IMG/VR virus record: IMGVR_UViG_2728369182_000007 | Direction: 5' to 3' (one strand) | Origin: a virus | Lineage: Duplodnaviria; Heunggongvirae; Uroviricota; Caudoviricetes | Length of the DNA: 48,325 nucleotides | Part shown: piece by piece, positions 4,389 to 48,325 of the stretch | How the letters are laid out: every line of letters starts with the position of its first letter | How positions within the stretch are numbered: position 1 is the stretch's first letter | The notes under the pieces: generated by a model | Told to the model about the DNA's origin: nothing | Databases searched by the model: none | What the model saw: the letters and a program-made list of their open reading frames with translations, nothing else | Program-made: the position numbers and the translations under genes

Positions 4389-4466
4389 NNNNNNNNNNNN
4401 NNNNNNNNNNNNNNNNNNNNNNNNNNNNNNNNNNNNNNNNNNNNNNNNNNNNNNNNNNNNNNNNNN
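4389..4466. other. assembly gap (78 N)
   Basis: run of N. Confidence 1.
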
Positions 4467-45776: not shown

Positions 45777-46133
45777 TTATTCAGTTCTGGATTTTGTCGC
45801 CCTGCGTATCCGCGCTTTCGCGTTACGCTCAATCTGAATTAGCTTTTCTATATTTTTTCGCCTTTCCCGCTCCTCCTGACGCAAGAGCCTTACATCATCT
45901 GCCAGTCTGGTTTCTCTTTTCGCCACAGAGAGCATCCAGTCAAATGGCTCCACAACTGCACCGCAGATTTTACAGCGGACCTGACGCTCTTTTTCGTCAA
46001 CCCGGACAGAGGCGTGATGACAATATGGTCTTTCCGATGGCTCATAAAGAAAATTAACCTGATTACGAGGGTCATCCTCTTTTACCGGAAATAAAACGAT
46101 ATTGCTTAACTCATCCTCTGGTTTTATTTCCAT
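45777..46133 (-). CDS. hypothetical protein with Cys/His cluster (about 118 aa)
   Basis: Start placed at MEIKPEDELSN...; CHH...CKICG motif suggests a zinc ribbon. Confidence 0.4.
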   Translation of the reverse strand: MEIKPEDELSNIVLFPVKEDDPRNQVNFLYEPSERPYCHHASVRVDEKERQVRCKICGAVVEPFDWMLSVAKRETRLADDVRLLRQEERERRKNIEKLIQIERNAKARIRRATKSRTE

Positions 46134-46190
46134 GCTCCTCTCCTTTGATGCGAATGCCAGCGGTAATTGAAGCCTGATAGCTAATTTCAC

Positions 46191-46613
46191 TCACAGTACC
46201 GCCTCCTGAAAATTACCCTGATAGAAAGCCAGTACACGCTGCATAGCTTCACTCTTCCGGCACTCGCGACAGATTATGTTTAGGCGACTGTCGTAGCGAC
46301 GTATTTCTCCGTCAGGTAACGACCAGATAAGGTCCGGATCAACCACAACCGGTTTCTTCAGCTTTGCCCTCGATAATTTTTTGCGGGCATTTTGCCAGTC
46401 TTTACGAGCCTGTTCAGACGGGAATAACCCGTAGCCAGAATTGTATACATCGCCACTGGCAACCAGCTCTCTGGCCAGAACGCTCATCAGATATCTTGTT
46501 GCCCCAGTTTTAGCTTCCAGTTGTCGTAACGTCTCGCGCCCACTCTGGCGTACGAGTTCAAGAACCTGCCCTTTAATTTTTTCCCGCTCTTCTTGTGTAA
46601 AAACTTTTGCCAC
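46191..46613 (-). CDS. hypothetical protein (140 aa), copy of 33424-33849
   Basis: Near-identical ORF. Confidence 0.5.
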   Translation of the reverse strand: MAKVFTQEEREKIKGQVLELVRQSGRETLRQLEAKTGATRYLMSVLARELVASGDVYNSGYGLFPSEQARKDWQNARKKLSRAKLKKPVVVDPDLIWSLPDGEIRRYDSRLNIICRECRKSEAMQRVLAFYQGNFQEAVL

Positions 46614-46653
46614 AAGCCCTCCTGAAAATTACCTCATGACCAGAAATTAACAC

Positions 46654-47927
46654 TTACCCCCTGAAGCCCGGCGGAATTTCGTTATCCGGTTCAGAAATAT
46701 GATTCACACAACGCTGGTTGTTCGTGCCGCTTACCGGGAGCAGCCAGGGGTTTTCAAAATTCCGGTCCGGTCCAAAAAACGTCGTCGCTCGCTGAACAAA
46801 TTCCGTTCCCGTTTTCCCGGTAGCCGCAAGGTATCTTGCGTAACGCCTCACGCCATCCAGCATGGCCTCTGGTGGCACCCCCTCGCGTAATCTGGCTTTC
46901 CAGGCACTGAAAGCGGATTTCTTCGGGTTTGCCCCGGCACGCAACGGGTATTCCCGCCAGACCTGTTCGAACACATCAGGATAATCCACTCGTCCCACAG
47001 GCTGCCCGGTGTTTTCCGGGACTACCCGATCGGCTTCCCGCTGAATGGCGGAATCGGCTTCAGGCTGCTGAAGTTGGTGTGATTGCTCCTGCCTTGCGGT
47101 CATCACCTGCTGCACAGCGCCCGAATCGGCTTTCAGCGCATACGCTGAATCGGCTTCCGGTGTCGTGCCTGCTGGCTGACCAAGATTGACGGTCTGAACA
47201 TCCCCTGCCTGGTTCGTGGCGTTTTTTACGCCATGGACCATAGTGTNNNNNNNNNNGGGCTGGCCAGGAGTGACGGTCTGAACATCCCCTGCCTGGTTCG
47301 TGGCGTTTTTTACGCCATGGACCATAGTGTTTTGATCTTCTTGATCTGTATCTTTATCTGTATCTTTATCTGTCGTGACTCGTCGTGACATGTGCGTGAC
47401 ATTTCGTGACGCGCCGTGACAATCGCCATTTTGTTCCCGCTTTCTTTCCCTCTCTCGCTGCGCCCTCTTGCGCTCTGCAGGAGATTTTGCGGTTTGCGAA
47501 ATATTGCCGTTGTCCTCTTTAAGCACCTGGCGTTTTTCCCATCCAGTGATTAAATCACCATCAAGTACCCGCCCCTGCATCNNNNNNNNNNCGGAGATTT
47601 TGCGGTTTGCGAAATATTGCCGTTGTCCTCTTTCAGCACCTGGCGTTTTTCCCATCCAGTGATTAAATCACCATCAAGTACCCGCCCCTGCATCGTCTGC
47701 AAAATTGAATCAATTACCTCTTCTGTCACGTCGAGCGCACTTGCCAAATCTTCTGTCGTGACATCAATGTGACCTCGCGTGACATTTCGTGACGCGCTCA
47801 CCAGGAGGTGGATATACACTGCCATCACTGTTGCAATTGGCTGCCCTGACACCCTGGCAATTGTTCGCCACTTAGGGTCATTTGGCATGTCATGCCATAA
47901 TCTGAGCCAGGCGTTAGCCATACTCAC
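46654..47927 (-). CDS. putative phage replication initiator / replisome organiser (split by two 10-N gaps)
   Basis: N-terminal MSMANAWLRLWHDMPNDPKWRTIARVSG... region; internal iteron arrays; gaps at 47247-47256 and 47582-47591 are flanked by duplicated sequence. Confidence 0.4.
47247..47256. other. assembly gap (10 N) flanked by direct duplicate of about 50 bp
   Basis: run of N; ctgaacatcccctgcctggttcgtggcgttttttacgccatggaccatagtgt present on both sides. Confidence 1.
47373..47420. repeat. iteron-like array: five CGTGAC motifs phased at 10 bp
   Basis: tCGTGACtcgtCGTGACatgtgCGTGACatttCGTGACgcgcCGTGAC; preceded by tandem tctttatctgta repeat at 47345-47372. Confidence 0.6.
47582..47591. other. 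assembly gap (10 N) flanked by direct duplicate of about 110 bp
   Basis: 47468-47581 repeats 47592-47705 almost exactly. Confidence 1.
47756..47792. repeat. second iteron-like array: four (C)GTGAC motifs phased at 10 bp
   Basis: tCGTGACatcaatGTGACctcgCGTGACatttCGTGAC plus inverted GTCACG at 47726-47731. Confidence 0.55.
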
Positions 47928-47992
47928 CTCTTCTGATACCGAATCTTTTTACTCACGAGTTGCCGGAAGCGATTCGATATGGCTATTGTCAG

Positions 47993-48310
47993 TCAATGTA
48001 CTGCCACAGCATTTCCTGCCGGGCCACCACGGTTCATCTGATTGAAACCGGCGATTGCCACTGCGACAAAATCATCAGCGTCTCTCACCAGTCGCTCCCG
48101 CGTCTCCACCAGCTCCCGAAAATAAGCTGAACTGTGGCTGCGCATTCTGGCCACCAGCAAAGGTGGCATTGCCTTTTCGATCGCTGGTAACAACGCCTGA
48201 ATTTTTTCAACTGCATCAGGGGTGTCTTTCTCTACCCAGCGGAAAATTTTCTGGGTATTGCGAGCCAGGGCTTCCGGATGGCTGTCGTCATACAGTTCCG
48301 GGAACGTCAT
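47993..48310 (-). CDS. hypothetical protein (105 aa) upstream of replication gene
   Basis: ORF only. Confidence 0.35.
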   Translation of the reverse strand: MTFPELYDDSHPEALARNTQKIFRWVEKDTPDAVEKIQALLPAIEKAMPPLLVARMRSHSSAYFRELVETRERLVRDADDFVAVAIAGFNQMNRGGPAGNAVAVH

Positions 48311-48325
48311 TCCCAGCTCGAAATA

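Follow-up and report, generated by a model that had tools for sequence, protein, structure and literature searches.

A putative origin of replication inside the initiator gene of a Rac/Qin-type lambdoid prophage

Background

Origins of replication that are located inside the gene for their own initiator form a class that is already known. In the RepA_N plasmids, the origin repeats are inside the rep gene. Lambdoid phage origins are found midway along the O gene, with the O protein binding both the iterons and AT-rich single-stranded DNA, and in Shiga toxin (Stx) phages extra iterons add residues to the O protein (PMC7466680). The G38P (gp38) protein of phage SPP1 binds the direct repeats of oriL inside gene 38, beside an AT-rich unwinding element (PMC6316719). 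Here, two arrays of short repeats, designated array N and array L, are described from IMG/VR record IMGVR_UViG_2728369182_000007, a viral DNA of 48,325 nucleotides (nt) assigned to the Caudoviricetes, the whole of which is referred to as the window. Both are within a gene for a putative replication initiator, or replisome organizer, on the minus strand at 46654..47921. Computational evidence supports the proposal, made in a preliminary description of the window, that an origin is embedded in this initiator gene, and it is very probable that the region serves a Rac/Qin-type lambdoid prophage as its replication origin.

The annotated record of phage lambda has four 18-base-pair (bp) iterons at nt 349-433 of the O gene; next come ACAAAAGAAAAAAGAAAAGA, a run that is rich in purines and in AT, and a palindrome, GTCAGAG...CTCTGAC. 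The locus in the window is similar in being inside the initiator gene, in the part that codes for a linker, and in having repeats followed by a purine/AT tract and then a palindrome along the direction of transcription. The position within the gene is also nearly equal, with array L at nt 389-435. In the sequence of SPP1 gene 38 there are four or five phased repeats of approximately 11 bp, of the AGAAACGACAC type, followed by an AT-rich 9 bp tandem repeat in the middle of the gene, which is the same layout as array L and its tract. Gene 38 is followed by loader and helicase genes, as are the relatives of the gene in the window. SPP1 differs in that its second origin, oriR, is elsewhere in the genome, rather than there being a second array in the same gene, and in having a Gram-positive host.

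Also among the closest known systems are the DnaD N-terminal domain and the RepA_N-type initiators, including RepA of staphylococcal multiresistance plasmids (PDB 4pta). The Rac prophage has been reported to have an active origin, oriJ (PMC3945230). The gene neighbourhood of Rac in Escherichia coli K-12 is of the same type as that in the window, with ydaS/cro, ydaT, DUF977, hokD, dicB, and ydfD. At the position of the initiator gene, K-12 Rac presumably carries ydaU/ydaV, a different replication module.

Two arrays of phased cores

Array L (47374..47420, minus strand) has five direct GTCACG cores on the gene strand, 10/10/11/10 bp apart, and is located where the segment coding for the predicted disordered linker begins. 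On the plus strand, exact CGTGAC sequences start at 47374, 47384, 47395, 47405, and 47415, in steps of 10/11/10/10. The five motifs first placed at 47373-47420 are therefore all present, at 47374-47420, and it is only the spacing of exactly 10 bp attributed to them that does not hold. Array N (47757..47793, minus strand) has, on the gene strand, four directly repeated cores of the form GTCAC(G/A), 10/10/11 bp apart, and encodes amino acids (aa) 43-55 of the initiator, A-S-R-N-V-T-R-G-H-I-D-V-T. On the plus strand, CGTGAC is exact at 47757, 47778, and 47788, with a one-mismatch TGTGAC at 47768, in steps of 11/10/10. The cluster of four motifs previously given as 47756-47792 is thus present at 47757-47793, with three exact copies and one variant. 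A lone core in the inverted orientation (GTCACG, 47725..47730, plus strand) is approximately 27 bp downstream of array N in the orientation of the gene, and an inverted core is found at gene nt 192 in many homologues. As had been stated, both arrays are inside the coding sequence of the putative initiator, a single open reading frame (ORF) on the minus strand.

The CGTGAC word itself is not enriched across the window, occurring 28 times against 21.7 expected. Phased pairs of the form GTCAC-N4-7-GTCAC were found 7 times against 0.40 expected (0/100 shuffles). All 7 are within arrays L and N, and there are no phased core pairs elsewhere in the 48-kb window.

The arrays in closed genomes

Within the initiator gene the window has two N10 gaps, at 47247-47256 and 47582-47591, each of which is accompanied by a redundant copy of neighbouring sequence. 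The first of these artefacts (47174..47256) is a copy of 47258-47330 (73 nt, 96% identical, offset 84 bp) together with its N10 gap; the second (47480..47591) is a copy of 47593-47694 (102 nt, 99% identical, offset 113 bp), likewise with its gap. By megablast, seven phage isolates and several thousand complete E. coli chromosomes contain the region, with identities of 97-99.5%. It is 1204 bp long in closed genomes and 1401 bp long in the window, the difference of 197 being equal to 84+113. Since both arrays are present, and the duplications absent, in the closed E. coli genomes and the phage isolates, the arrays are genuine and the duplications are artefacts of assembly. The possibility raised in the preliminary description, that the repeats might arise from mis-joined contig ends, is thereby removed, and the duplications flanking the gaps are resolved through the closed genomes as 84 and 113 bp of artefactual sequence. 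One closed copy (L002), which keeps both arrays, the tandem repeat beside array L, and the inverted core, gives the true length of the gene as 1071 nt, or 356 aa (L002:4055-5125); the copy in the window is inflated by the two artefactual insertions. The true distance from the start of array N to the start of array L is 260 bp, where the window shows 373 bp.

The window is a draft scaffold containing ten runs of N, at 4389, 5995, 8237, 9600, 11301, 12963, 34275, 43609, 47247, and 47582. Duplicated flanks are present only at the two gaps in the initiator gene, with differences between the duplicates at 1-3 positions, a pattern which suggests that contig ends from two paralogous prophage copies were joined in the scaffold. 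Many genomes contain at least two copies of the gene region, which is probably the cause of the breaks and of the few mismatches between the duplicated ends.

Selection on the cores as DNA

Homologues were found via conserved peptides of the N-domain, giving 60 loci from contigs of one genome per species. These loci include E. coli/Shigella, Aquitalea, Bordetella, Pseudomonas, Serratia, Acidovorax, Chromobacterium, Sphingomonas, and others. GTCACG occurs in three reading frames on the gene strand, as G-TCA-CG (Ser-Arg), GTC-ACG (Val-Thr), and GT-CAC-G (x-His-x), because the period of 10-11 bp is no multiple of 3. Across the GTCACG group (18 species), those codons for A-S-R/Q-N-V-T-R-G-H-x-D-V-T that overlap cores are essentially invariant. 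Those for Val47 (GTC), Thr48 (ACG), Gly50 (GGT), His51 (CAC), Val54 (GTC), and Thr55 (ACG) are 100% fixed. Arg49, which is between two cores, is encoded by four different codons, and invariant residues elsewhere in the protein use four to six. At the inverted core, the codon for Val65 is GTG in every sequence (100%) with Val there.

Third-position entropy was taken at those invariant amino acids that have four or more codons and compared by the Mann-Whitney test. In the GTCACG group it was 0.13 bits in the cores and 1.71 bits outside them (p = 8e-5), and in the CGAACGC group (7 species) 0.24 bits and 1.18 bits (p = 0.005). This pattern of codon use indicates that the repeats are selected as DNA.

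It is extremely improbable that the repeats are no functional DNA element, but rather the by-product of a peptide repeat or an artefact of mis-joined contigs. Such a reading could draw on the gapped state of the scaffold, with duplications at both gaps in the gene, and on the 12 bp repeat neighbouring array L, which does encode a peptide repeat. It is refuted by the presence of the arrays in closed and phage genomes, by the occurrence of the core in three frames, and by synonymous sites that are frozen in the cores and vary freely next to them. A peptide repeat was rejected as the source of the hexamers on these last two grounds.

Conserved architecture and core variants

Two arrays in the same orientation, with cores at a spacing of one helical turn, were present in 44 of the 46 loci that have at least four cores. 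Array N is usually at approximately nt 129-165 of the gene and array L at approximately nt 340-450, with a median of three cores per array and a median gap of 227 bp between the arrays (range 158-319). In two Xanthomonadales loci (L057 and L059) array N is retained but has moved to nt 87-107. Conservation is confined to the asymmetric core of 6-7 bp, with variation in the flanking bases. The arrays, and the tract and inverted repeat after array L, are conserved as DNA over gamma-, beta-, and alpha-proteobacterial homologues, and relatives are also found in phages of Pseudomonas, Aeromonas, and Ralstonia. Variants in the length of the protein map exactly onto the two arrays, in which respect the family resembles the iteron-driven lengthening of O in the Stx phages.

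There are three variants of the core, GTCACG, GTAACG(C), and CGAACGC. The two arrays of a gene share one variant in the loci inspected, and this sharing is visible in the peptides as well, for instance as VNAGVTQSNA and GNAGVTQSNA within one protein. The variants broadly track the N-domain tree, yet switch between close relatives. Locus L027 has GTC-ACG where L023 and L025, which have near-identical N-domains, have GTA-ACG in every copy of both arrays, a change that is synonymous for Val-Thr.

An Stx-phage protein that has the same C-domain and another N-domain does not have such arrays. The genes flanking the initiator fall into 40 upstream and 32 downstream clusters across the loci. This distribution indicates that the arrays follow the N-domain, rather than the neighbouring genes or the C-domain. 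In a Serratia metagenome-assembled genome (L045 3001-4191) and in Pantoea (L056 3001-4305), the usual cores are absent. Here an insertion after the N-domain has repeats of its own, ACTACG/CTACGT x5-6, with a peptide like ...VGISRNPWAR...DLK..., and may represent a domain that was inserted together with another set of repeats.

The cores could instead be bound by some other factor, of the host or the phage, and have a function outside replication, for example in nucleoid organisation, packaging, or recombination. In favour of this explanation, the initiator is a predicted binder of the cores. It is nonetheless very unlikely, given that the arrays co-occur with the N-domain across proteobacterial classes where the neighbouring genes are unrelated, that they are gone where the N-domain has been replaced, and that phased pairs are confined to them in the window. 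That the three core variants broadly track initiator lineages also argues against a universal host factor.

The tract and inverted repeat beside array L

Adjoining array L is an AT-rich tract (47330..47373, minus strand), purine-rich on the gene strand, which is a putative DNA unwinding element. It holds a 12 bp tandem repeat present three times, TACAGATAAAGA, encoding DKDT repeats. This is the tandem repeat that had been noted as preceding the first array, and it was recovered by Tandem Repeats Finder (TRF) and a repeat finder as TCTTTATCTGTA x2.9 at 47339-47373. The GC minimum of the gene, 0.30, is at this repeat, so that the AT-rich region sought next to the iterons is directly beside array L. 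In 44 homologues, the 40 nt that follow array L have a purine content of 75% on the coding strand and an AT content of 68%, where the whole genes have 57% and 44%. The purine bias of the tract is kept more clearly than its AT richness in GC-rich hosts. Two GATC (Dam) sites, 9 bp apart, are present in the tract at 47330-47350, and the putative unwinding element could be sensitive to SeqA or to methylation state.

Just beyond the tract is an imperfect 13 bp inverted repeat with a 5 nt loop, TGGTTCGTGGCGT TTTTT ACGCCATGGACCA, at 47294..47324 of the window and read on the closed copy at L002 4611-4641. Four relatives with 46-52% protein identity have the stretch cTGGTTCATGGCG-aaaaaan-CGCCAGTGAACC here, in which the synonymous sites are identical among the four. 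Between these relatives and the E. coli copy there is a compensatory change of T:A to A:T in the pair that closes the loop. Hairpins are enriched at this position: in the 110 nt that follow array L, the best perfect stem has a mean of 5.92 bp over 50 loci, against 4.96 bp in control windows from the same genes (p = 5e-7). The loop TCACTACGTTC is common to several loci, where it is between stems that differ from each other and are still complementary. Read in the antisense direction, L002 4611-4641 scores as an intrinsic-terminator-like site, made up of the hairpin and the T-rich complement of the purine tract. Such a site could stop antisense transcription from entering the putative origin.

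The arrays, or at least array N, might instead be regulatory operators. The initiator would then act as a roadblock in its own gene, for autoregulation of itself and the downstream early genes, or the site would serve copy control or 'handcuffing', like the control iterons of plasmids. In iteron plasmids, extra iterons serve negative control. In keeping with an operator, array N is 230 bp from the AT-rich tract, has no lambda counterpart, and is accompanied by the extra inverted core, and both arrays are within a transcribed early operon. Array L, however, is flanked by classic features of an unwinding element, for which a pure operator has no need. The two arrays also share their core, orientation, and spacing, and switch variant jointly, which fits one binding protein and one complex. 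Regulation by operators is for these reasons unlikely as the explanation of the arrays, and it would be compatible with an origin role for array L, rather than exclusive of one.

The initiator protein

The initiator matches PHROG 3729, 'replication initiation protein', with E = 6.8e-257, and its C-terminal half also matches the 'DnaD-like helicase loader' and 'primosomal protein' families of PHROGs. It is labelled 'phage replisome organizer' by NCBI and database sources. Together with the loader and helicase genes that are downstream in relatives, this places the protein in the replication-initiator class, as had been supposed.

An AlphaFold 2 (AF2) model of the N-domain was built from 61 sequences and has block-mean predicted local distance difference test (pLDDT) values of 78-95 over residues 11-90. 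The predicted structure is a winged helix (helices 29-45, a loop, helices 56-63 and 67-77, and a beta wing at 78-88) with a fold like that of the DnaD N-terminal domain. In this model, array N would map to the region of the S1 loop (aa 43-57), from the last part of helix H1 to the lead-in to helix H2. The N-domain model replaced a first full-length AF2 model with a mean pLDDT of 50, with which Foldseek found nothing below E = 1. A profile search of the PDB by sequence gave no meaningful match. Residues 129-244 are predicted to be disordered and residues 245-320 to form a helical domain.

At the C-terminus, the last approximately 23 residues, RCVNHISEPDNEIPPGFRG (window 46654-46725), match the C-terminal tail of DnaT, with E = 7e-4 for NF002770, E = 3e-4 for 6aep_A, and E = 7e-3 for 9zbt_D. 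The tail segment of the initiator is SEPDNEIPPGFRG. A Pfam scan at E <= 1 gave no match to a DnaT domain, and the likeness to E. coli DnaT is limited to this tail. The presence of the tail hints that the initiator may engage the same host partner as DnaT. A role for the extreme C-terminal tail of DnaT is not discussed in a 2026 paper on preprimosome structure.

In the region that codes for the linker there are four copies of GAAGCCGAT, at 47029-47064 and 47125-47160, one of which is AAAGCCGAT. They are 24/72/24 bp apart and in frame, encoding E/K-A-D-S. Similar copies of this sequence are found in the Stx-phage protein that has the same C-domain and a different N-domain. These were considered as further iterons and rejected. 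Being in frame, spaced by multiples of 3, and travelling with the C-terminal module, they are more probably a peptide repeat than a DNA site.

Neighbouring genes and E. coli copies

The gene order is cI-like, cro/ydaS-like, ydaT-like, and initiator. In relatives, the gene that follows the initiator is lambda-P-like in 5 loci, IstB/DnaC-like in 3 loci and in all four of the full-length relatives fetched, DnaB-like in 3 loci, and a Toprim-DnaB primase-helicase in 1 locus. Taken with the gene order upstream, these downstream loader and helicase genes indicate that the initiator gene holds the 'O position' of the replication module. In the window the initiator is followed by DUF977 and by a small zinc-ribbon protein, both on the minus strand (46191-46613 and 45777-46190). 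Scanning 46500-48325 with Rfam gave no match to an RNA family, and a sigma-70 promoter scan of the gene found one weak site, equal to chance.

Partial matches to the gene region are present in 2929 of 5426 complete E. coli genomes, with 1647 of these genomes holding most of it. Three E. coli copies (P0196, P0224, and P0185) are truncated by a frameshift, which begins in array L or shortly ahead of it and extends into the tandem repeat (...SRQIKIQIKIQIK...). In another (P0019), an in-frame deletion has taken out most of array L and the tract. Slippage seems to occur readily in the repeat region, and the origin or the initiator is probably defective in some prophage copies.

Discussion

Several observations weigh against interpreting the region as an origin. 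The cores of this family are asymmetric, 6-7 bp long, and have a period of 10-11 bp, whereas the iterons of lambda are 18 bp long, dyad-symmetric, and 20-24 bp apart. Neither the annotated lambda origin nor the sequence of SPP1 oriL shows an equivalent of array N. A Pfam scan at E <= 1 gave no match of the initiator to the lambda O family, and SPP1 G38P showed no homology to the N-domain profile (hhalign probability 0.1). With PF09681 (Phage_rep_org_N) the initiator scores 12.8-16.5 bits, below the curated cut-off of 23.3. The element in the window does not have a helicase-loader gene adjoining the initiator and, with some E. coli copies frameshifted or deleted as well, any single prophage copy may be replication-defective. 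The survey of 60 loci covers one family only, and a literature search using the core hexamers with iteron and origin terms found no paper describing the repeats. A paper on Pf-5 deals with a different element.

The alignment to PF09681 spans the whole model, with residues 5-122 aligned to positions 1-118 of 121; E is below 0.01 in only 3 of 40 homologues. The score for TIGR01714 is 15.5 bits, against a cut-off of 49.8. Homology to the replisome organiser families, which had been suggested as a check on the protein, would be distant at most: the N-domain has the predicted DnaD-like winged helix and aligns over the full length of PF09681, with scores below the cut-offs of both models.

The comparison with lambda had been made because the iterons of lambda are in the O gene. 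It extends to the order and position of array L, the tract, and the palindrome, and to the strand asymmetry, the tract being purine-rich on the coding strand in both. It does not extend to the protein, which is no sequence homologue of O, to an adjacent P gene, which the element in the window lacks, or to array N, which is unmatched. On sequence features, only array L and the tract form a lambda-like unit. What differs from the known members of the class is the putative DnaD-like initiator, the short asymmetric cores at one helical turn, the second array in the S1-loop region, and the inverted core. In the E. coli elements there is additionally the absence of an adjacent loader together with a DnaT-like tail. 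The initiator family is unrelated to lambda O or SPP1 G38P and is without a published origin in the literature searched.

If the region is an origin, several initiator molecules would contact the cores through their winged-helix domains, along one face of the helix, and the bound initiators would oligomerise at array L into a complex like the 'O-some' of lambda. Array N, approximately 230 bp upstream, would be a second cluster, bridged by the same oligomer through looping of the DNA, and would raise occupancy or regulate firing. Strain from the complex would melt the adjoining AT/purine tract. The C-domain and tail would then bring in the replicative helicase, which in relatives would be by way of the phage DnaC/IstB-like or P-like loader. 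The element in the window, having no loader next to the initiator, would rely on DnaB-DnaC or primosome proteins of the host. As in lambda, the site would be crossed by early rightward transcription that comes from the cro/ydaS-ydaT operon.

A more specific version of this model is a two-site origin, in which arrays approximately 230 bp apart are bridged by an initiator oligomer, one of the arrays is housed in a permissive loop of the DNA-binding domain, and the opened purine strand and hairpin are handed to the host primosome via the tail that mimics DnaT. This version in full is speculative and rather unlikely. Were it true, the binding site would dictate part of the protein sequence, both would change together, and the E. 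coli elements could dispense with a phage helicase loader.

Conclusions

An origin at this place in the module is what a specialist would expect. The evidence from codons, the concerted switching of core variants, and the prevalence of the element make it a good test case. The region also illustrates overlapping codes, in that a putative DNA-binding site fixes the choice of codon over 13 consecutive codons of the DNA-binding domain, and that every copy in the two arrays has come to share a synonymous change of the Val codon, from GTC to GTA. The presence of this region helps to explain why short-read assemblies break inside the initiator gene.

The replication module is common in E. coli, and no paper defining its origin was found in the literature searched. 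The coordinates of the cores, the unwinding tract, and the hairpin now give a precise and testable putative origin. This may be of use for predicting which prophages can still replicate, for predicting the incompatibility of co-resident prophages from their core variant, and for building vectors.

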